Part shown: positions 3,695 to 59,080 of the stretch, in pieces
Layout: the number at the start of each line of letters is the position of its first letter
Position numbering within the stretch: the first letter of the stretch is position 1
Assembly: GCA_000165345.1 (NCBI GenBank)
Contig: CM000433.1
Coordinates: 128,001 to 192,000 of the forward strand
DNA length: 64,000 bases
Direction of reading: 5' to 3'
Made by a program: the position numbers and the translations under genes
Notes under the pieces: generated by a model
The model's input: the letters and a program-made list of their open reading frames with translations, nothing else
Told to the model about the DNA's origin: nothing
Database searches by the model: none

Positions 3695-4167
3695 ACGAAT
3701 TTCTCAAATTGTTTAACCTTGGGGCCCCCCTTTCCCGCTAAAACTAAATAGCGCGTGTACAAGTAAACGTGTAATTTATTATTTAAGTATTTTTTTAATA
3801 AAAATTTTGATTTTTTTTCAAGTATTAATAAATGTTATTAAAAATATTTATTTATATAATTAAACTCAACTATATGCTTTAAATTCCCAGTTTTTTTTTA
3901 ATTTACTATCATTTAACTAAGTGAATATTTCAAAAGCACTCGCTTGTGCCGCTCAAAAATTTTATTCTTGAAAATTAAACTAATTACATGTAATACTATT
4001 CAATAATATAAATTTCCTTTTCATTTCACGAACTTATTACTTAAAAAACTATCTATAACTGTATCAATTTTTTCCTATTAATACTCTATTATTATGAATA
4101 TCATCAATAGTTATTTGAAATATACTCTATAGGGAAATTAATTGAAAAAAAAAATAACGCGAATCAT

Positions 4168-4992
4168 TTAAAATAAAATTCCTTCATTCTTTTGCTCCAA
4201 AATTGAATCACCAGAGTTCTTGATTGTATCGTATGAGGAGGAATCGTTTTCTTTAGAATTACTTTTATCCTTCTTTAGTTTCTCTTGAAGTTCAGCTTCT
4301 GCCCATTCCTTCTTCTTCTCTTGAATCTTCTTCAATCTAAAGAATTCTTCTCTCTCAATTTCATCCAATTCTCTTAAAATGTAATTCATACCATCCTCTA
4401 ATTTTGGTAAAACTACATTCTGTAATGCATTTACACGACGATTTGTCATCTTAATCTCTTCATCTAAAGAAAAGAATGCAGTCTGTAAGCTAGCTAACTT
4501 GACTAAATCCCTTAATACTTTCATGTAAATTTCTCTAGTTGATTGAATTACTTGACCTCCACTTGCTACACCAATATGACATGTTTCTGTAGATGAATTA
4601 TTATCAACATTCATCTCAAAAATTGGTAATCTAACACCTGCAATATTCTCAGTACCAACTTCCATTGTTACTGTTGGTCTTTTACATGATTCTATGATTC
4701 TATCTTTGAAATCACCAGCTGCCCATGTTGCCTTTGCCAATGCAAATGACGCTTCTTTAATATCATTACCTATTGAACGTTTTGTTTCAACAATTTCTTT
4801 TAACATTCCTCTAAATTTGTTTGATAAAGCATCACTCTTTCTTTTCAATAAATCATATCCTTGTTTTGCTCCTTTGCTCTTCAACTTTATTGCTTGTAAA
4901 GCCCTATAAATTAACAATTAATTTTCAATATTAAAAATTATTCTATATAAATTGTAAACTTACATTCGACTTGGTGTTGGTTTCTGATCCAT
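4168..4992 (-). CDS. V-type proton ATPase subunit D. Two exons: join(4168..4903, 4964..4992), 60-nt intron 4904..4963, about 254 aa.
   Basis: Strong similarity to V1 subunit D throughout (LKRKSDAL, ASLQTAFFSLDEEIKMTNRRVNALQNVVLPK, RLKKIQEKKK). The ORF-track start at 4917 is a TTG. The upstream 29-nt exon is ATGGATCAGAAACCAACACCAAGTCGAAT|GTAAGT. It splices (AT+G) to give MDQKPTPSRMALQAIKLK, matching the conserved PSRMAQT N-terminus. Confidence 0.85.
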
Positions 4993-5563: not shown

Positions 5564-7556
5564 ATGAATTACCAACTTTTTTTATTTTATTATTTAATTA
5601 TTAACTGTTTAATATATGCATTTTATTGTAATGATGAAATTACATATTTAAAGGAAAAGGTGAAATTTATAATATTTGATGACTTTCATATTGGACCAGA
5701 TGTAAGTAATTTAATTTATTATAATTAAATTATTATTAAATAATAAATTTTCTTATTCTATTTTTTTTTTTTTTAAATAGAATAAATCCATTTTAGATAT
5801 TTTATTAATTGATAATAAGATTCCAAAAGATAATGTATATTATTTATCAGAAAATATTCCATACAAATATCCACAAGATACATTATTATTACCTATACTA
5901 TTTAGATATGTTAAAGAATCCAATAATAATAATTTTGATTGGTTTTTTATAATTAATTCTTATACACGTTTTAATCCAATATTATTAAATGAATTATTAT
6001 TTAAATTAAATAAAGAACAAACAATATTTGAAAAGATACAAAATGTTCCAAATATTAGTAGTAATATTAAATCTCCAAATAATAATTTTATTGGTGTTCA
6101 AATTAATGACAATGTTCCATCTATAGTACATCATTATAATTTGGATAAAAATTTTAAATATCCATTCCATCATTCTGGATATGCTATTAGAAGATTTACT
6201 ATTGAATCTTTACAAGTATCAATAAAATCATCATCAAATTATATTAATAATAAAAATAATTACAAAATTTATACTGATGTAAATTTTGAGGTATGTTATT
6301 TCATTATGAGTTTACTATTAATAATAATAAAATTAATTAATTTATAGTTATCAAAATTAATTTATGATGAATTAAATATTAAATTAAAAGATATACCAGA
6401 ATTTTGTATAAATATTGATGATACTGATCCAAAATATCATAAAAAAAATAGTATAATACCAAAAAAATGTATTACTTGGTCAATATCTTATCGAATTTCA
6501 AATAATTGTGTATCATTTTCACTTCCTTAAATAATATAAATCAAAAATATATTATTAATCCAAATGAAGTTGTTATTGCCATAAAAACTACTCAAAAATA
6601 CCATAATAATCGTATTTCACAAATTAATCAATTATGGGCAAATAAAAAATATTTAAATTATAATTCAATTAATTCAAATCCTTATTGTAAGAATTATTTT
6701 AGTTCAATCTCACATTTAATTAAACCATTTAATGATAAATCTATTCATATTGATATTTTGAGTGATCATAATGATATTATTAATAATATACCCATAAACG
6801 ATTTAAAAACTGGAAATCAATCTAATGGTCATTGTTTAAAATTATATTCTATTATACACTTTTTATATAATAAATATATTATTAATAACATCAATTCAAA
6901 TTATAAAATCAAATATTTTGCTCTTGTTGATGATGATACTCTAATCATTCCATTTTCTTTACTTAATTCTCTAACTTATATAAATCACCAATATAATGAT
7001 AATGATCATTTTGATTTATATCTTGGATTAAGATACTCATTTGGATCTATTATTGATAATTGGTCTATTGATTATATTACTGGTAAGTTTTACCTTTTTT
7101 ATTTATTTATTTATTATTATTATTTTTTTTTTTTTACTATTNATTTAGGGGGGGGGGGTNTTATTATTAATTCAAATNCCTTATCTAANCTTGCAAAANG
7201 TAAAGGTAANGTTAAAATTTTATAATTATTCCATTATTATTTATTAATTTCAATTATAGAATGTATTTGTAATAAACCTGATGAACCTGATGATATGGCA
7301 CTTGGTAGATGGTTTAAATTTCTCAATATTAAAGCAATTAATTTTAATGGATTCCATCAAGCTGAATCAATTCACTATCATTCTTATTATAATTATTTTT
7401 CACATATTATTTCTTTTCATAAAATTGAATCAAATATTTATAATACAGCNCAAAAATATAATCCAAAAATATTTAATTTATTATATCCACNNATNGAATG
7501 ATCNNANTNNNTACNNANAAAATAATCATGATAATAATAAATTTGATGAATTATAA
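5564..7556 (+). CDS. B3GLCT: B3GLCT-like ER beta-1,3-glucosyltransferase (GT31). It has a signal peptide, an N-terminal DxD-less GT31-like domain, a C-terminal fringe-like GT31 domain with DDD, and a C-terminal KFDEL. Proposed exons: 5564..5701, 5781..6290, 6348..6507, 6570..7082, 7149..7205, 7260..~7556. The last exon contains N bases and a frameshift.
   Basis: Exon 1 reads MNYQLFLFYYLIINCLIYAFYC... (signal). Domain 1 has WFFIINSYTRFNP (DxD lost) and HHYNLDKNFKYPFHHSGYAIRRF. Domain 2 has VVIAIKTTQKYH, NGHCLKLYSIIHFL, YFALVDDDTLI, LYLGLRYSFGS, DYITG|GGGG.IINSN.LS.LAK, PDEPDDMALGRWF, FHQAES. These match human B3GLCT motif for motif (FVAVKTCKKFH, GHCGKTF, VIVDDDTLI, YITGGGGMVFS, PDDMVLG, FHQA). 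It ends ...NKFDEL* (human ends REEL). Introns are canonical GTAAGT/GTATGT...TAG and phase-consistent. Confidence 0.6.
7142..7518. other. Low-quality or ambiguous assembly segment: at least 16 N bases around a G10-11 homopolymer and at the 3' end of the B3GLCT-like gene.
   Basis: n at 7142, 7160, 7178, 7190, 7199, 7210, 7450, 7491-92, 7495, 7504-05, 7507, 7509-11, 7515-16, 7518. Confidence 0.9.
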
Positions 7557-42799: not shown

Positions 42800-43755
42800 A
42801 TGGATAGTATTATACTTAGAACAATCTATTTATATAAGATCAAACTTAAAAGGACTTGTATGCGTTGTTTTATTGATATAAACTTCCTGTTAGCTTTAAT
42901 TCATATATTTACAGTTATATTAAAATAAACGCCATACTAAAACAATAATATATTAATATACTCGAAATGTAAAATTTAATGTTGCCAAAAATTTTGAGAA
43001 AATAAGAATCTTTTAACAAAGCAGCGGATGTTAAATTTGTGTATTGTATTAGCAAATTACCTAATTGTTGTAATTTGTAAATACAAAAGAAGAAGCTGCT
43101 TTTTTGGAAATTAAAAAAAAAAAAAAAAAAAAAACCTGATTATATTTTAATAGATTATGAACTTTATACTTTCTTTTAATTTTGAATAACTTTATAAATT
43201 AATAATATCAAATTAACGCATAACAACTTTGGAATTTTGAGCTAATGTAAACGTTCACTCATGCAAACCCCCATAAATATATTTATTTATTTTTTTATGG
43301 TCAACTTTCTTGAAAAATATGTAATCTCGGTGATTTTTTTTTCGTTTTGGAATTCACAAATATTTACCACTCACCACATAGAAACTAATTTGAATTTGGG
43401 CGGGCACAAAATATAGAGCAATATTTTTTAGAATTTTTTTGTTTGAAAAGATCTAAGCCTATAAGAAGAGGAAGGAGGGAAAAAATAACAAACTGTTGTA
43501 TGATAACTGCTTAAAATAGAATTGTGAGTTATTTTATATGGAGTTCGGCAATATTTTTTTTAATTCCTCTATTTTTTAAAGCAGTATTAATAATAAAACT
43601 TATTGGCTTATATTTGTATACATCAATTTATACATGATATTCCGAACATTAATAAGATTGATTACGGCATAAATATAGCTATTCTGAAGAAATACAATAA
43701 AAATTTATTTTATTGTCTGATCACATTTTGTCATTTATTTCAAATTATCTTTAAA

Positions 43756-53127: not shown

Positions 53128-54540
53128 TTAACTAAGGAAAGTATCAGAAAATTGCCAGAATTGAATAGTGTTGTCTTCTGAAGCGGATGCTACTAAAAGA
53201 GGGTCTCCGTGCTCATTTGGATTCCATGAAATACTTGTAATAGGAGCTGTGTGTCCATAATGGATAAAAATAGCATTTGGATCAAAGGAATCCTTTTGAG
53301 AATGAGCCTTGTTAGGATCTTCATATGTTTGGTTGTTCTGATTGATATTTTCGAGACCATTTTGTAAATATGCGTTATTTTCACTAGGATTGTGGTTTTT
53401 ATATAAATCCCATACAACTACCTTGTTATCAACTCCTCCTGTCATTAAGATATTTGGAGACCATTTAGACCATTCCATGCAAATGATAGGCTTTTTAGAA
53501 TGAAGGTTGAATGAAAATAGTTCTTCATTAAGATTCCTAAAATCCCAAATTTGAACAATTCCATCCAAATTACCAGTAGAAACCATGGTAGGAACAAATT
53601 GGTTAAAAGAAAGAGTGTTGATTCCAGATACTGTATTTTTAAATAGACTTGGGGAATTTTCGGATGAACTTCTTAGATCCCAAAGAGCAAAAGTTCCATC
53701 ATCTGATACGGACCCAAATACTGATAGAGAAGAAGGATGCCATTTTAAGTCATTAACATCAGAATTGTGCCAGGAGATACTTTTTATTGGCTCCAAAATG
53801 GGTGGAGAATATTCAGATGATTCTTGTGAATCTGGATCAGCTTTATTATTATAGATAAAATGATTTTTTGCACTTGAGTTCAGAATCCCATTAGTATTTT
53901 TATTAAAATCCCAAAGATTGATAATGCGATCGCTTCCGCCTGAGATCAAATAATCATTTGAAGTACTATTTCCCCAATCCATTGCATACCCTTCCTTTGA
54001 GTGACCTTTTAGAAGAAGCTGGGGATGCACAAATTCATCAGTTGGGAATGACTCATGCTTAGAATAATCAAAAACTAAAATATCACCATTAACAACTCTA
54101 CTGGCAATAATAAATGGATGTTCTGGCATATGTAATGCCTTATTAACTTCTTCTGGGTGATTTAATTTTGCCTTTACCTCAAATTGAACAATATTCATGT
54201 TTGTGTTTTCTGGATTATATGAATATTCAGCAAAGCTTTCAACATTCATTAAATCATCATTAGCTTCCAAGTCACCAATATGAACTTCAGCAATTATCAA
54301 ATAATTGGGTTCTTGGTCGCTAGTATGAGTTCCATAGATGATTTTGTGAACAGAATAACTGCCATCTGCTGATTTATAAGAATTTGGGAGCCAATCAATA
54401 GTCAATGTTGGCCATTCCAATGTATAAGATAGCATTGTATCATATAGATATGGACAATTCCTTCTCCAAATGTATTGAATATCATCATCCACATTGTTAT
54501 TAAGTGTCGTGGGTCCTTCGTTGCTCGTTAATGCTTGCAT
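53128..54540 (-). CDS. Histone-binding WD40 protein RbAp48/RBBP4-7/MSI1 (CAF-1/NuRD subunit), 470 aa.
   Basis: YIWRRNCPYLYDTMLSYTLEWPTLTIDWLP resembles [31 protein letters not shown]. ...LLVASASEDNTIQFWQ resembles ICSVSEDNIMQVWQ. Seven WD repeats with Asn-rich insertions. Confidence 0.85.
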   Translation of the reverse strand: MQALTSNEGPTTLNNNVDDDIQYIWRRNCPYLYDTMLSYTLEWPTLTIDWLPNSYKSADGSYSVHKIIYGTHTSDQEPNYLIIAEVHIGDLEANDDLMNVESFAEYSYNPENTNMNIVQFEVKAKLNHPEEVNKALHMPEHPFIIASRVVNGDILVFDYSKHESFPTDEFVHPQLLLKGHSKEGYAMDWGNSTSNDYLISGGSDRIINLWDFNKNTNGILNSSAKNHFIYNNKADPDSQESSEYSPPILEPIKSISWHNSDVNDLKWHPSSLSVFGSVSDDGTFALWDLRSSSENSPSLFKNTVSGINTLSFNQFVPTMVSTGNLDGIVQIWDFRNLNEELFSFNLHSKKPIICMEWSKWSPNILMTGGVDNKVVVWDLYKNHNPSENNAYLQNGLENINQNNQTYEDPNKAHSQKDSFDPNAIFIHYGHTAPITSISWNPNEHGDPLLVASASEDNTIQFWQFSDTFLS

Positions 54541-55041
54541 TTTGTTGTTTTGTATTCCTAATTTAATACAATATTATATCATAATCTTCTATTTGGTTTT
54601 AATTACAGATTTTAGTACAGTTTTAATCAGTAAATTATATATTAAAGTTGTTTATTTTCTTAAAGGTTGTTAGGAATTAAAATAAAACCCTCAAACCTGT
54701 TCAAAAAAGCCTCTACTGTATGTTAATAACTCAGAATCAATTAAATAGTATTATTCTACTTTTGTTTTAACTTGTTTGATTTTCTTGTTAATATTTAATT
54801 CGGAGGGTAACGTAAATCAAACTTAAGGCGCCAATGTGCATGTATTTAAATATGTAGTCAAAAATCTGAAAAATTGATAAATAAATGAATCTAGAGAAGT
54901 TTTTAAACCTTTTCCGGAAATTAAAAATATTTAAAGTTAAATTAGTTGCATTAAAAATAATAGGGTCTGTTTATATAAATTTCGTCCTTTTGAGTCTAAT
55001 TTTATCAAAGAGTATTGTGGGGTGAATAATATATATTAAAG

Positions 55042-56984
55042 ATGCATTATTTTAAAGGAAACAAAATAAAATGGAAGATGTTTAAAAAAAAACTTAACTT
55101 ATTTTTGTCATTTATTTTACAGTTTATGACACTTTTGATCATTATAAGATGCACAGAAAAAAATAAAGCTACGCATGTTAGAGTTCAAGATAGAATAGAA
55201 CCAATTAAATTAAATTTGGACGATAAAATGATAAAAAACTATACTACTTTAATAACAAGTGAAGCTTACCAAAGGTTAGTATTTTAATTAATCTGTTGGC
55301 TTTGATTATTTTTTTAATTTTTTTATTTTCAATTTAGTTTAAGCAACTATCCAATTTGGGAAGATACATCCGATACTGATATAATTGCCAGTAAAGAAAA
55401 CAATTTTGAAGAAAATAATGCAAAAGAAGATTACGACATTAAAAGAGGATTTATAGATTTAGCAAAAAACATAACGCATGTTTATGGCAATATGATTCAA
55501 TCTAATTTGGTTAATGAATTTCAAGATGATTATCAGATCCCAGAGCCCATTTTTGACGAAAATCCTGAATATTTCTCATTCCCTTATCAAAAGGATAGCA
55601 TAGGGAATGAAGCAAAAATACTGGATGGGCTAAATAAGGTAAGTAAAATAAACAAGAATTTTGATAATGCTTAATAATAAATAGACGAAAAATGCTGTAA
55701 ATCTTGGTAAAAATATTACAGTAATCAAACAAGATGATAGAGAGATGCTGAGAAATGCATTTCCAGAGGTAAGCTATAGTGCCAATAATTTTAACATCTA
55801 GAAATATCACTATATAAAGGACTTTTCAGTAAATTCAGGTGAAGAAGACTTTACGAATCAAAGTTTAAATTCTAAAAATGTAGAGGAGTTACTAAAGGTA
55901 TGATTATATTCAATAAAAAATACTTCTAACACCTTATTTAATTTTTTAAAAATTTAGGAAACTAGAGCGAATCACCAAGATGAGCATGAGAGGATTCAAG
56001 AGTATTTGCAGAGTTTAAATATTACTTCACCGGTAAGATGAATCATTAGTATTCTAATAGCTTATATAATTTACCTAATATTAGAAAGTTACATCAAAAG
56101 TTGGTGATTTGTATGATTCTTATATTTTACTTTCAGCATCAGCTCAGGAGTATAATGATATTTATAACAATACAGTAAGTTTATTATATTATTGAGATTA
56201 CAAATATTATTTCTTAAAAAAAGTTATATGGCAATAAGACAAAACAGCCTTTCTCAATTCCATTAAAGCCTTATTAGTAAGTGATAATGTTAAAATTAAT
56301 AATATATTTTTAATTAAGATATTTCAATACAGCATTTGGGAAGGGATAGACAATTTATGGGATATTAAAATGTCAAAAACAACAACTCCAAGTCCAAAAA
56401 CAAGAGAAGCATTAAACAAAATTGATAATTATAATTCATTCATTAGGTGGAAAAGAGAAGAACCATTCAGAGTTTATGATATGTGGTATGATGCGGTAAA
56501 AGAAAGAAAAGATGGGAGAAATTCAATCAGAAGAGAAGCAATCAAGCAAAGAGATAGAGTATTAGAAGAAAAAATGAACAAACAAAGAGCATTTTATTCA
56601 CCTGCAAAAGAAAAATTTGATGATATAGGAAATGTAAGTTAATTAATTTTACATAACAATCAATATTCCATTAAATTTAGGCAACAGAATTAATGGCAGG
56701 ACACATAGATAAAAGGTTTGGACAACTTTTCAATGAAGTCACTGAAATTATGGATAAAGAGGCAAAGGAAAGGTAAGATTAGACTAATTTATTTAATATT
56801 AATTGACTATTCGCTAATAATCAAATAATTTTCTATTATTTATAGAGAGCACAAATATTACGAGCATACTTTCAAAAATAAAATGGAAGAATTCTGTTCA
56901 ATTTACCCAAACTGCTGTATAAATATGTCACAATGCCCTGAATTTGTATATAACTACATTCAAAAGGCAAGAATTCTTTTTTAG
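55042..56984 (+). CDS. Ten-exon gene for a secreted or ER-targeted protein of unknown function (about 487 aa): join(55042..55274, 55338..55638, 55685..55768, 55802..55897, 55958..56032, 56085..56174, 56224..56276, 56333..56633, 56681..56772, 56846..56984).
   Basis: N-terminal signal peptide (MFKKKLNLFLSFILQFMTLLIII). Every junction is GTAAGT/GTTAGT/GTATGA/GTAAGC/GTAAGA ... (T)TAG/CAG and keeps the frame open. Alternative acceptors give immediate stops. Introns are 63, 46, 33, 60, 52, 49, 56, 47 and 73 nt. One micro-exon is 53 nt. Two ORF-track fragments (55492.., 56370..) fall into this frame. The Cys-rich C-terminus is ...EFCSIYPNCCINMSQCPEF. Confidence 0.5.
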
Positions 56985-57391
56985 ATATGTTTGATTAATT
57001 TCTTAGTTTTGTTTTCATGCACTTAAAAAAAAAGTTTTGGCGGGTAAATGCGCGCATCTAAAAAGAACTTAACGAAACCGATTTTAGCTGTAATATCCAT
57101 GATAAATATTCGTTGAAAATTCATAATTTGAAATAAAAGGTTTTCAAAACTAATCTATATTTCCCCAGTTTGAATTTGAGTACATTAATTGTTCAAAGAT
57201 CTCAAACATTACAAACAAAAATTAAGTTATTCTAAATTAAAATAAGCTCAAAAATATTATCAAAACTATTATTAATTCCAACAAAAAACTTTGTTAATAT
57301 TACGGCAAGTTCAGTATTTAGGAAAGCAACCCATAGATTATTTATTTGTACAAAAAAACATCTTTTTTTCTTGAATAATAAATATTTCAAA

Positions 57392-59080
57392 ATGGCTCCT
57401 TCGCTCAGAAAAAAACCAATTGAATTAAAAGGCATTGAATTATTAAGAAACCCCTTCTATAATAAGGGGTTAAGTTTCACTATGGAGGAAAGAAAGGAAT
57501 ACGGACTTGAAGGTTTGCTTCCTGCGAAGTATGAGACTATTGATGAGCAAGTTTCCAGACTATGGACTGCAATAAACAAAATTGACTCAAATATTGGCAA
57601 GTATACTTTTCTTGAGAATATCAGAAGTTCATCCTTTATTCTTTTCCACTCTCTTCTTGATAAATATTTTAAAGATTTAACTCCTTTGGTATACACGCCT
57701 ACTGTTGGTGAAGGTTGTATCGAATTTTCAAGGAATCCAACCATTAGGAATTGGCTAGGTTCTGGCCTTTACTTGAATAAATCTCATAAAGGACGCATTT
57801 ATGAAATTTTAAAAGACTTTAAAAGCGATGATATAGAAATCATTGTATTAACTGATGGTGGGAGAATTTTGGGATTAGGCGACCTTGGTCTTAATGGTAT
57901 GGGTATTCCAATGGGTAAATTATCATTATATATTACATTGGGTGGAATAGACCCTTCTAAAGTATTACCAATTTCCTTAGATATCGGTACAAATACTAAT
58001 GATATTTTAAGCGATAAATATTATTTAGGTATTTGCGAAAAAAGGATAGATAATGATGAATACTTTCCATTGATGGATGAGATCACTAAAGCAATTTTCA
58101 AAAGGTGGCCAAACACCGTTCTTCAATGGGAAGACCTTACAACTTCAAGAGCAATTGATATTTTGGATATCTATCAAGATAAATTTCGTTGTTTTAATGA
58201 TGATATCCAAGGTACTGCAAGTATTGTTTTAGCAGGTTTAGTTAGCTCACTTAAAATTGCCGGGAAGAATTTCGAAGATCAAAGAATTCTTATTTGTGGA
58301 GCTGGTTCTGCATCAATTGGTATTGTTAATTTAATTATTAAATCTATGGAAATTAAGGGAATACCTTATCAGTCTGCATTGGAGAAATTTTGGCTTGTTG
58401 ATTCTAAAGGATTAATAACCAATTCAAGAGATTTAAATAGTTTAGACAAATTCAAAGTGCCTTTTATCAGGAAAAATATTGACAGGAGTATTACTGACTT
58501 GGTAGAAATTGTTGAATTGGTTAAACCAACAATTTTATTGGGTGTTTCTGGCCAAGGGGGAATTTTTAATGAACAAGTAATCAAGACTATGGCATTAAAT
58601 GTTGAAAGACCAATTGTTTTCGCTCTAAGCAACCCTACCAATAAAGCAGAGTGTAATGCCTCTGACGCGTATAAATGGACGAATGGTAAAGTTATTTTTG
58701 CTAGTGGGAGTCCAATGAACCCTATCAAGGCAATTGATGGCACCGAGTTTATTCCATCTCAGTGTAACAATATGTATGTGTTTCCTGGAATTGGTCTTGC
58801 TGCTCAAATCGGCCAGCTTTCTCACATTCCCGATATTTGCTTTATTGAAGCGGCATACTCAGTTTCTAACTTTATTCATATAGATTCCAATTCTAATATT
58901 TTATTCCCACCGCTTACTGCTTCTGTTGGAAGAGAAATTTCTGCATCAATTGCAGCTGATATTATTCTTAGAGCAAAAGAAATGAACATCATCAATAAGA
59001 GTGTATGCCCAGATTTACCTTTGGATAATAGGGAAAACATCCTCAATTATATTAAAGATAGAATGTGGCTTCCTTATTAA
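57392..59080 (+). CDS. Malic enzyme (NAD(P)-dependent, decarboxylating), 562 aa.
   Basis: LRNPFYNKGLSFT, VYTPTVGEGC, malic-enzyme signature FNDDIQGTASIVLAGL, dinucleotide-binding GAGSASIGI, and divalent-cation site GLGDLG. The ORF-track start at 57371 is TTG. The ATG is at 57392. Confidence 0.85.
   Translation: MAPSLRKKPIELKGIELLRNPFYNKGLSFTMEERKEYGLEGLLPAKYETIDEQVSRLWTAINKIDSNIGKYTFLENIRSSSFILFHSLLDKYFKDLTPLVYTPTVGEGCIEFSRNPTIRNWLGSGLYLNKSHKGRIYEILKDFKSDDIEIIVLTDGGRILGLGDLGLNGMGIPMGKLSLYITLGGIDPSKVLPISLDIGTNTNDILSDKYYLGICEKRIDNDEYFPLMDEITKAIFKRWPNTVLQWEDLTTSRAIDILDIYQDKFRCFNDDIQGTASIVLAGLVSSLKIAGKNFEDQRILICGAGSASIGIVNLIIKSMEIKGIPYQSALEKFWLVDSKGLITNSRDLNSLDKFKVPFIRKNIDRSITDLVEIVELVKPTILLGVSGQGGIFNEQVIKTMALNVERPIVFALSNPTNKAECNASDAYKWTNGKVIFASGSPMNPIKAIDGTEFIPSQCNNMYVFPGIGLAAQIGQLSHIPDICFIEAAYSVSNFIHIDSNSNILFPPLTASVGREISASIAADIILRAKEMNIINKSVCPDLPLDNRENILNYIKDRMWLPY

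Follow-up and report, generated by a model that had tools for sequence, protein, structure and literature searches.

A conserved ten-exon gene of Cryptosporidium parvum encoding a candidate secretory protein whose C-terminal four-cysteine domain recurs in Sarcocystidae

Results

Locus and gene model

At positions 55042-56984 (+) of the window (the whole 64,000-nucleotide stretch analysed here) lies the Cryptosporidium parvum chromosome-5 gene deposited as cpbgf_500743 and CPATCC_0022540. Between positions 43128 and 64000, about 21 kb, the window shows 0 mismatches to CP044418.1 of C. parvum IOWA-ATCC. Two GenBank proteins, both bearing only the product name "uncharacterized protein", represent the gene: WRK32219.1 (cpbgf_500743, C. 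parvum IOWA-BGF T2T, 481 aa), which shares the ATG at 55042 and the stop and matches exactly the corrected model described below, and QOY41508.1 (CPATCC_0022540, IOWA-ATCC, 469 aa), which begins at a second ATG, at 55078, ends at the same stop, and corresponds to the corrected protein without its first 12 residues. Each has the same nine introns, with intron 3 measuring 51 nt. Introns of the IOWA-ATCC annotation are described, in an annotation-wide statement, as 100% RNA-seq supported (Baptista et al. 2022; PMC8744675), and the BGF models as manually curated with Iso-seq, again in a general statement (PMC12179316). An earlier note on this DNA had treated the gene as unrecognised; the deposits QOY41508.1 and WRK32219.1 show otherwise, and the gene model is already known for C. 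parvum, cpbgf_500743 being contained in curated annotations. Its CryptoDB name may be cgd5_745, as suggested by 5g745-type locus tags in other assemblies.

The gene probably comprises ten exons separated by nine short spliceosomal introns (GT-AG, 46-73 nt), and would encode a protein of 481 aa (Table 1). The corrected coding sequence is 1443 nt long plus the stop, has GT..AG at 9/9 introns, and opens with an ATG (55042) that is invariant in 4 species. The ten segments as first proposed join into an open 1464-nt coding sequence (487 aa) running from ATG 55042 to TAG 56982-56984, within which the ORF fragments 55042-55287, 55492-55674, 56370-56642 and 56883-56984 represent in-frame parts of exons 1, 2, 8 and 10. 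Eight of the nine introns in that proposal agree with the public models and stand; the remaining one, a 33-nt intron 3, disagrees with them, and its wrong acceptor adds six residues (KYHYIK) that the GenBank models lack. At intron 7, use of a nearer acceptor (56317-56318) would lead to a TAA stop.

Table 1. Features of the gene in window coordinates, with intron 3 and exon 4 as corrected
Feature	Position	Strand	Description
Exon 1	55042..55274	+	233 nt; ATG 55042; Lys-rich N-region, hydrophobic segment (residues 17-36), invariant Cys37
Intron 1	55275..55337	+	63 nt, phase 2, GTTAGT..TTAG; GT..AG kept in 4 species, lengths 63/61/52/73
Exon 2	55338..55638	+	301 nt; 301/301/301/292 in four species
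Intron 2	55639..55684	+	46 nt, phase 0
Exon 3	55685..55768	+	84 nt in every species examined, including C. bovis and C. muris
Intron 3 (corrected)	55769..55819	+	51 nt, phase 0; conserved acceptor 55818-55819
Exon 4 (corrected start)	55820..55897	+	78 nt
Intron 4	55898..55957	+	60 nt, phase 0; internal CTAAC branch-like site
Exon 5	55958..56032	+	75 nt in every species examined
Intron 5	56033..56084	+	52 nt, phase 0
Exon 6	56085..56174	+	90 nt
Intron 6	56175..56223	+	49 nt, phase 0; 56 nt in C. muris; absent from C. bovis
Exon 7 (micro-exon)	56224..56276	+	53 nt in C. parvum, chipmunk genotype I, C. canis, C. felis and C. muris
Intron 7	56277..56332	+	56 nt, phase 2
Exon 8	56333..56633	+	301 nt in 5 species; 81-88% DNA identity; most conserved part
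Intron 8	56634..56680	+	47 nt, phase 0
Exon 9	56681..56772	+	92 nt in 6/6 species examined
Intron 9	56773..56845	+	73 nt, phase 2
Exon 10	56846..56984	+	139 nt including TAG stop 56982-56984
C-x5-CC-x5-C motif, coding sequence	56895..56936	+	Cys453, 459, 460 and 466 of the 481-aa protein

The surroundings are intron-poor, as had been claimed: the genes for malic enzyme, a WD40/CAF1C protein and choline kinase are intronless, and comparison of span with product length leaves only about 0.2-0.5 kb of intron for Rpb1 and for a neighbouring gene encoding 1000 aa. This is the setting of the genome at large, in which about 90% of genes are without an intron; published figures for C. parvum are 2-10 exons, with a mean of 2.6, and about 10.8% of genes with any intron (PMC4637869).

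Conservation of the exon plan within Cryptosporidium

The donor and acceptor dinucleotides of 9/9 introns are kept in four species (C. parvum, chipmunk genotype I, C. canis and C. felis), the C. felis intron-6 donor being shifted by 2 nt in the MAFFT alignment. A check of orthologues for conserved exon structure, which the earlier note had proposed, bears out the model, with intron positions and phases retained across 5 further species: 9/9 in chipmunk genotype I and in C. canis, 8-9 in C. felis, 8 in C. bovis, where one continuous 155-nt exon occupies the region of intron 6, and about 9 in C. muris. The 53-nt micro-exon is likewise real, its length recurring in the four other taxa given in Table 1. 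Additional introns produced by spliced alignment in the divergent N-terminal part of C. muris and in exon 4 of C. bovis proved spurious on direct translation.

Exon-length changes among five species were multiples of 3 in 13/13 cases, whereas only 7/24 non-zero intron-length changes were. Substitution rates at codon positions 1/2/3 were 0.09/0.04/0.27 against chipmunk genotype I, 0.19/0.13/0.39 against C. canis, and 0.25/0.15/0.52 against C. felis, with the third-position rate near that of introns. The order Rpb1 - WD40 - gene - malic enzyme is kept in six further Cryptosporidium species, C. muris among them. Judged from these comparisons, the intron-rich structure was in place before C. muris and C. 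parvum diverged, and purifying selection has maintained it.

Relatives outside the genus

The absence of a named family, noted earlier from inspection, was borne out by a Pfam scan of the protein, which returned only four sub-threshold, unrelated matches, and by a PDB sequence-profile search, which gave nothing below E 0.9. When 1.84 billion proteins were searched exhaustively with a profile, only Cryptosporidium pieces, Toxoplasma and three other sequences were recovered; additional searches added further Sarcocystidae homologues, bringing these to Toxoplasma, Neospora, Hammondia and Besnoitia. All matches fall within Cryptosporidium, these four genera, and four sequences of unassigned organism. 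No Plasmodium homologue was detected by HMMER profile search, an absence that divergence beyond the reach of HMMER could explain.

The Sarcocystidae homologues (T. gondii VEG BN1205_093690, CEL77267.1; H. hammondi HHA_309550; B. besnoiti BESB_070440; and a "conserved hypothetical protein" of N. caninum) are equally uncharacterised. They have in common with the C. parvum protein a C-terminal domain of about 125-135 residues, the coding sequence of which begins with exon 8 according to the profile matches; an hhalign comparison of this domain with the coccidian homologues gave a probability of 96.7% and E 4e-10. The shared motifs are YN-x-F-x-W...PF-x-x-YD, R-x-x-AI-x-x-RD-x-VL...KQ-x-x-FY-x-P and a terminal C-x2-[YN]P-x-CC-x5-C, and the columns P, R, I, RD, VL and P of alignment A3 are invariant. 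The order of the elements is PF-x-x-YD, RD-x-VL, FY-x-P, then the terminal C-x5-CC-x5-C. The cysteine motif itself occurs in the homologues from Toxoplasma, Neospora and Besnoitia, in two environmental homologues (contigs L010 and L011), and in every full-length family member. On these sequence features the proteins constitute an unnamed Cryptosporidium/Sarcocystidae C-terminal 4-Cys domain family, as defined in the present analysis. The homologues carry many N-glycosylation sequons and, in full-length form, a signal peptide; the full-length coccidian homologue P0038 starts with a canonical one, MASPLFFGCGCLLLWIAFLESVFG. On the other hand, identity to the C. parvum protein is only about 24-28%, and the methods used could not align the N-terminal halves.

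The Neospora gene has one intron in the shared region, compared with two in C. parvum. In the MAFFT alignment, which is ungapped here, this intron falls exactly at C. parvum intron 8 and in the same phase, while a 7-residue gap introduced by hhalign places it 7 codons away; the position of intron 8 may therefore be common to both, in an alignment-dependent manner that we do not rely on.

Protein features

The N-terminus is signal-peptide-like, as originally proposed, with a Lys-rich n-region followed by a single hydrophobic h-region at residues 17-36 (Kyte-Doolittle peak 17-39), long enough for an anchor, and a conserved [IV]-x-C ahead of a polar stretch. Cys37 is invariant in five species. 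The description "Cys-rich" does not apply, there being 5 Cys in 481 residues (1.0%), four of the five residing in the C-terminal C-x5-CC-x5-C motif; this cluster is indeed present, and none of its four Cys varies among five Cryptosporidium species. Two N-glycosylation sequons are invariant in 5/5 species and three more are found in 4/5. These sequons, together with the even number (four) of invariant Cys beyond the putative cleavage site, fit transit through the ER.

Secondary structure is predicted by AF2 to be mainly helical. The full-length AF2 model, built on a 4-sequence alignment, was unusable (pLDDT 37); that of the C-terminal 180 aa, from 7 sequences, reached pLDDT 72 with pTM 0.28 and was essentially one long helix, a form that conflicts with two invariant prolines and is probably an artefact of the shallow alignment. 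A Foldseek comparison of this C-terminal model with the PDB gave no match.

Discussion

Several other readings of the locus deserve consideration. The possibility that the spliced ORF arose by chance threading of GT..AG pairs through AT-rich non-coding DNA, where GT and AG are common and short introns offer many ways round stop codons, is effectively nil: in 100 Markov-1 simulations of the region, run under the same donor, acceptor and length rules, spliced coding sequences had a median of 134 nt and 0/100 were above 299 nt, compared with 1464 nt observed for the model as first proposed, and the reverse strand yielded 98 nt under those rules. Codon-position periodicity, the confinement of exon indels to triplets, and orthologues 42-85% identical point the same way, and the earlier claim of a genuine multi-intron gene is upheld by the length of its ORF and by the conserved structure of the orthologues. 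That this first model is exact in every detail, with a 33-nt intron 3 (55769-55801) and a 487-aa product containing KYHYIK, is very improbable. The shorter intron has GT..AG borders, preserves the frame, and shows a branch-like TTTAAC 7 nt before its acceptor, which C. parvum might use as a minor alternative 3' splice site. It was not, however, the only frame-preserving acceptor, as had been stated, since a second one lies 18 nt downstream (55818-55819) and is both kept in other species and used by the public models (AFPE|DFSV), every curated one of which has the 51-nt intron. Chipmunk genotype I (TTTGG), C. canis and C. felis have no counterpart of the AG at 55800-55801, which is found in C. 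parvum alone; in these three the 18-nt stretch between the two acceptors carries +1 and -8 nt indels and is therefore non-coding. With intron 3 at 51 nt, the introns span 46-73 nt and the protein has 481 aa rather than 487.

The earlier note had further offered, as an alternative to a lineage-specific protein, an acquisition with unusual intron density. We give scarcely any credence to a recent acquisition, or a lineage-specific invention, in which intron density derives from foreign origin. It would accommodate the lack of a Pfam or PDB match and an intron density far higher than that of the neighbours, but the gene holds a syntenic position, with its introns conserved, in seven Cryptosporidium species (C. 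muris among them), neither its GC content nor its splice signals depart from those usual in the host genome, and Sarcocystidae homologues exist. Acquisition is refuted by the synteny in six species besides C. parvum and by introns that extend back to the C. muris split; in its strict sense, "lineage-specific" also fails, given the homologous C-terminal domain in Toxoplasma, Neospora, Hammondia and Besnoitia. A domain common to four Sarcocystidae genera makes the gene neither genus-specific nor an acquisition. A more substantial alternative, if still an unlikely one, concerns the protein: the hydrophobic segment might be an uncleaved signal anchor, making the product not a secreted protein but a resident type II membrane protein with a luminal housekeeping role in the ER, Golgi or a secretory organelle. 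The run of about 18-20 hydrophobic residues is long for a signal peptide, the many lysines ahead of it fit the positive-inside rule, and the residues just after it are unusually conserved (C-x-EKNK-x-T-x-VR-x-QDR-x-EP). Against this, the conserved [IV]-x-C at -3/-1 is consistent with a cleavage site, the signal peptide of the coccidian homologue P0038 is short and classical, and the C-terminus bears no KDEL/HDEL or other retention signal.

We favour, as the probable overall explanation, a known ten-exon C. parvum gene with ancient introns, whose product would follow a secretory route to an extracellular or luminal role. The Lys-rich N-terminus and the hydrophobic segment of 18-20 residues would direct the protein into the ER, with cleavage probably after the invariant [IV]-x-Cys37 and N-glycosylation expected at the conserved sequons. 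The mature protein would be acidic and mainly alpha-helical, and two disulfides formed by the invariant C-x2-[YN]-P-x-CC-x5-C could stabilise or cross-link it. Because matches are limited to Cryptosporidium, four Sarcocystidae genera and four unassigned sequences, its role would most likely be that of a structural or interface protein, extracellular or in an organelle lumen, tied to enteric or oocyst-stage biology; it is solely the phyletic pattern that points to these stages. Full-text literature gave no match for cgd5_745, cpbgf_500743, CPATCC_0022540 or TGME49/TGGT1/TGVEG/HHA_309550, and expression, localisation or phenotype of the gene or its Toxoplasma homologue was found neither there nor in the supplements of the Toxoplasma hyperLOPIT atlas, the cat-stage transcriptome papers and Isaza 2015, coverage of which was possibly incomplete.

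Oocyst wall proteins (COWPs) provide one point of comparison. They are present in oocyst-forming apicomplexans, in a comparable pattern, and the C. parvum protein resembles them in its apparent use of the secretory pathway and in cysteines capable of forming disulfides. COWPs have tandem Cys-rich repeat domains and a high Cys content; membership in that family was rejected on the single 4-Cys motif, 1% Cys, absence of a repeat, and lack of a COWP-like Pfam match at E<=1. COMP and the matrilins are extracellular helical or coiled-coil proteins in which a flanking cysteine cluster serves for inter-chain disulfides. The likeness is a long predicted helical region ending in a compact Cys cluster; there is no match in sequence or fold, and the comparison is an analogy only.

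A bolder and rather doubtful extension would see in these proteins an undescribed apicomplexan family (signal peptide, helical body, C-terminal C-x5-CC-x5-C knot) of the oocyst-forming Cryptosporidium and Sarcocystidae, undetected in Plasmodium, that may act in sexual-stage, oocyst or host-interface biology, the nine introns having been kept since before the radiation of the genus as splicing matters for regulation, for example by stage-specific intron retention. From a practical perspective, the C-terminal domain ties the gene to uncharacterised Toxoplasma and Neospora proteins in a small unnamed family, apparently secretory, that could be tagged and localised in either C. parvum or T. gondii.

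With ten exons the gene stands at the upper limit of the C. parvum range, which makes it a test case for splice-aware annotation and useful for asking why a few genes escaped intron loss. The suspicion that annotation easily breaks its model was well founded. Public models of the gene and its orthologues have eight lengths (360, 418, 433, 434, 468, 469, 481 and 482 aa); the annotations of C. bovis and C. muris divide the orthologue into two partial genes, the C. felis model is truncated and wrongly spliced, and C. hominis and some C. parvum assemblies have shortened versions. With the conserved exon plan, orthologue models in several public genomes would be put right.

Reality and annotation of the ten-exon gene

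The gene at window positions 55042-56984 (+ strand) of the Cryptosporidium parvum contig is real, and the earlier note, which had proposed it as ten exons separated by introns of 33-73 nt and encoding 487 aa, was largely correct in recognizing it. The proposed segments join into an open frame of 1464 nt (487 codons plus stop) from ATG 55042 to TAG 56982-56984, with GT at the start and AG at the end of all nine introns, and GC content is 14-30% in introns versus 24-39% in exons. Four ORF fragments (55042-55287, 55492-55674, 56370-56642 and 56883-56984) lie in the resulting frame, being parts of exons 1, 2, 8 and 10. Because the threading of GT..AG introns through AT-rich DNA (the window has about 22-38% GC) could in principle yield false genes, a null model was run on 100 Markov-1 simulations of the gene region, in which up to nine introns of 33-73 nt were allowed, each with a strong donor and an AG acceptor. 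The longest simulated spliced coding sequence was 299 nt (median 134) and the reverse strand of the real region, under the same rules, gave 98 nt, against the full 1464 nt on the real strand; a chance product is rejected on these figures.

The third intron required correction. Each donor had been said to have only one frame-preserving acceptor, but donor 55769 has two, at 55800-55801 and 55818-55819, giving introns of 33 and 51 nt, respectively. When the DNA of four species is aligned, conservation is seen at the downstream acceptor; at the upstream one, Cryptosporidium sp. chipmunk genotype I has TTTGG, and the AG is missing from C. canis and C. felis. The intervening 18 nt have indels of +1 and -8 nt in these other species, so that this stretch is non-coding there. 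All curated models have the junction AFPE-DFSV. The 33-nt intron is therefore wrong, the protein is 481 rather than 487 aa, and the introns range over 46-73 nt. The upstream acceptor, which does preserve the frame in C. parvum, may be in minor use in that species.

The gene model is already known, and thus not new for C. parvum; the gene described as unrecognised is present in public annotations as CPATCC_0022540 and cpbgf_500743. The former (QOY41508.1, C. parvum, 469 aa, 99% identical) was retrieved when the 487-aa product was used as a database query, as were orthologues from chipmunk genotype I (481 aa), C. canis (474 aa) and C. felis (441 aa). The latter (WRK32219.1, 481 aa) belongs to the 90% identity cluster, as do C. 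meleagridis cmbei_500743 (482 aa) and a C. tyzzeri protein (468 aa); for C. hominis and further C. parvum-like assemblies the cluster has shorter models (360, 418, 433 and 434 aa). WRK32219.1 is the originally proposed protein without six residues (KYHYIK) and otherwise exact, and QOY41508.1 is the same protein begun at the second ATG; ATG 55042 is invariant in C. parvum, chipmunk genotype I, C. canis and C. felis and the second ATG is not, which favours the 481-aa start. Locus tags of the 5g745 form occur on several of the shorter models or their cluster mates, and the numbers 745 and 500743, taken in the style of CryptoDB, come between cgd5_740 and cgd5_750; these tags suggest that the gene was added later than the 2004 annotation. 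One database match, P0019, is a Logan ORF over window positions of about 55668-55900 in which both window TAG codons (introns 2 and 3) are read as Gln, probably an artefact of a gene caller that applied a TAG=Gln table to that read-assembly contig, with no sequence difference.

Window positions 43128-64000 show 0 mismatches to CP044418.1 (C. parvum IOWA-ATCC), and one each to C. parvum IOWA-BGF (GCA_035232765.1) and GCA_031892065.1. Introns of the IOWA-ATCC annotation are described as fully supported by RNA-seq (Baptista et al. 2022, PMC8744675) and the BGF annotation as curated by hand with Iso-seq (PMC12179316), both being general statements rather than statements on this gene. About 10.8% of C. 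parvum genes contain introns, and those have 2-10 exons (mean 2.6), with a mean intron length of about 99 nt, in a study that also reported 74 genes absent from the original annotation (Isaza et al. 2015, PMC4637869). Ten exons is therefore the top of the reported range; the introns of this gene are below average length, not extreme.

Conservation and age of the exon plan

Each of the nine introns is bounded by GT..AG in C. parvum and likewise in chipmunk genotype I, C. canis and C. felis; MAFFT shifts one donor, that of intron 6 in C. felis, by 2 nt. Exons keep their length across species or change it in steps of three nucleotides: exons 3, 5 and 9 measure 84, 75 and 92 nt in each species examined, and the 53-nt micro-exon singled out originally (exon 7) recurs in all of them but C. 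bovis, which has it fused to exon 6. Intron lengths vary freely (63, 61, 52 and 73 nt for intron 1; 73, 43, 72 and 70 nt for intron 9). With the reconstructed C. bovis and C. muris genes included, exon-length changes are triplets in 13 of 13 cases and non-zero intron-length changes in 7 of 24. Substitutions per site at codon positions 1, 2 and 3 are 0.09, 0.04 and 0.27 for chipmunk genotype I, 0.19, 0.13 and 0.39 for C. canis, and 0.25, 0.15 and 0.52 for C. felis, the third-position rate approximating that of introns. This codon-position pattern is the mark of purifying selection on the protein.

Intron positions were mapped by a purpose-written protein-to-genome spliced alignment. All nine introns share position and phase in chipmunk genotype I and C. 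canis, as do eight or nine in C. felis. In C. bovis, the two halves of one nine-exon gene without intron 6 are annotated as the adjacent models FG379_003704 (194 aa) and FG379_003705 (250 aa); exons 6 and 7 form a single 155-nt exon there (about 4145-4299 of the fetched locus, L012). A 156-aa C. muris model and CMU_041150 (169 aa) belong to a single ten-exon gene that includes the 53-nt exon 7. Identity to C. parvum is 55% for C. bovis and 42% for C. muris. The C. felis model reads through an intron and omits the final exon, with its Cys motif. The expectation that such a gene would be easily missed or fragmented is thus borne out by orthologues split in two species and mis-spliced in a third, for several of which a corrected exon plan is a by-product of this work.

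Corrected features of the ten-exon gene and its orthologues
Feature	Position	Strand	Basis or remark
Intron 3, corrected	55769-55819	+	Conserved acceptor, indels, curated models
Exon 4 start, corrected	55820	+	Follows from intron 3 correction
C. parvum introns 1-6	After residues 77 (phase 2), 178, 206, 232, 257, 287 (all phase 0)		Spliced alignment
C. parvum introns 7-9	After residues 304 (phase 2), 405 (phase 0), 435 (phase 2)		Spliced alignment
C. bovis orthologue	L012 3012-5022		Reconstructed, 486 aa
C. muris orthologue	L013 3027-about 4900		Reconstructed, ~451 aa
C. felis orthologue	L008 3001-about 5000		Annotated as HWI79_2160

The exon structure is therefore conserved in chipmunk genotype I, C. 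canis, C. felis, C. bovis (one intron lost) and C. muris, and its persistence as far as the last two species places the ten-exon plan, on the evidence of spliced alignment, before the radiation of the genus, with one intron lost in one lineage. The earlier note had entertained acquisition as an alternative source of the unusual intron density; synteny, which is the same across all species compared, and the conserved introns together refute it. C. muris, on a deeper branch, retains the 53-nt exon; the loss of intron 6 is specific to the C. bovis lineage, in an exon plan that is otherwise frozen.

Protein features and relatives

The product is net acidic, with ten N-x-S/T sequons, cysteines at 37, 453, 459, 460 and 466, and a single hydrophobic segment (residues 17-36) that follows a Lys-rich stretch. 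In the five Cryptosporidium species compared, none of the five cysteines varies and two sequons are invariant, three more sequons being present in four of the five species. Of the description as a secreted Cys-rich protein with a signal peptide, the signal-like N-terminal segment stands, but cysteine amounts to 1% of residues; the C-terminal cluster was correctly seen, as a compact C-x5-CC-x5-C located 15 residues before the C-terminus. A signal-peptidase site would fit the pattern [IV]-x-Cys37 and the polar, highly conserved residues after it, and a mature protein cut after Cys37 would have exactly four cysteines; possibly, the hydrophobic segment is instead an uncleaved type II anchor.

The protein had been said to match no family, and indeed a Pfam search gave sub-threshold noise only and a PDB sequence search no match. 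The suggested HMMER check, with a Cryptosporidium profile against 1.84 billion representatives, yielded 15 proteins at E<=1e-3, mostly exon-sized fragments from Cryptosporidium assemblies. Four are weak matches to the C-terminal domain (E 2e-5 to 8e-4), namely Toxoplasma gondii VEG BN1205_093690 and three unnamed environmental/Logan sequences; the Cys motif is present in all three that reach the C-terminus (BN1205_093690, P0025 and P0027), and P0022 stops short of it. Follow-up searches extended the set to Neospora caninum, Hammondia hammondi (HHA_309550) and Besnoitia besnoiti (BESB_070440), as well as to a pair of unnamed coccidian-like sequences, of which one opens with a classical signal peptide. 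The Cryptosporidium and coccidian profiles align over 124 columns (96.7% probability, E 4e-10), with the conserved core YN-x-F-x-W...PF-x-x-YD ... R-x-x-AI-x-x-RD-x-VL ... KQ-x-x-FY-x-P ... C-x2-[YN]P-x-CC-x5-C. The protein is thus lineage-specific insofar as matches are limited to Cryptosporidium and Sarcocystidae, but its C-terminal domain extends beyond the former, and a small unnamed apicomplexan secretory protein family is thereby delineated.

Full-length structure prediction was uninformative (pLDDT 37); the C-terminal domain was predicted as a long helix with a small cap (pLDDT 72, pTM 0.28), in which two invariant prolines argue for breaks in the real fold, and a Foldseek search of this model against PDB gave no match. 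We found no data on expression, localisation or phenotype for the gene or its Toxoplasma homologue. The Neospora homologue (6001-7222 of the fetched locus, L009) has one phase-0 intron within the shared domain, which coincides exactly with C. parvum intron 8 (56634-56680) in an ungapped MAFFT alignment and lies seven codons from it in hhalign, which places a 7-residue gap; a shared intron 8 is possible, depending on the alignment. The models of HHA_309550, T. gondii COUG, P0038 (a full-length coccidian homologue) and P0039 run through the Neospora intron site into the intron.

This is, then, a conserved and selected ten-exon gene whose product has a hydrophobic targeting segment, conserved sequons, an invariant four-Cys end motif and Sarcocystidae homologues. 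The protein would enter the ER by its N-terminal segment, with probable cleavage after Cys37, and would be N-glycosylated; the terminal motif would form two disulfides, which either close a small knot or join chains. A structural or interface role linked to enteric or oocyst-stage biology is a speculative and rather doubtful extension, proposed solely because matches are restricted to Cryptosporidium and Sarcocystidae.

Neighbouring genes and candidate promoter elements

The local order is Rpb1, WD40/CAF1C (53128-54540, minus strand; identical coding in C. parvum chromosome-scale assemblies), the ten-exon gene and malic enzyme; judged by span versus product length, adjacent genes are without introns or nearly so, in keeping with the intron-poor surroundings first described. 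The malic-enzyme gene has no introns in C. parvum or any Cryptosporidium species fetched; its ORF (57371-59080) has TTG 57371 as listed start, and the annotated product of 562 aa implies a start at ATG 57392 (MAPSLRK...).

Between the stop of the ten-exon gene and this ATG lies TTTGGCGGGTAAATGCGCGCAT (57036-57057); four Cryptosporidium species share its core TTGGCGGG...TGC.C..AT without change, amid divergent intergenic DNA. It resembles the E2F-like promoter motif described for Cryptosporidium, and is probably the malic-enzyme promoter. Two further sequences are candidate promoter elements. ATTGTGGGGTGAA (55014-55026), 16 nt before the start codon of the ten-exon gene, is the same in chipmunk genotype I as in C. 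parvum, nearly so in C. canis (ATTGTGGGGTAAG) and not present in C. felis; GGCGCCAATGTGCATG (54827-54842) lies in the intergenic region that the ten-exon gene has in common with the divergently transcribed WD40 gene.
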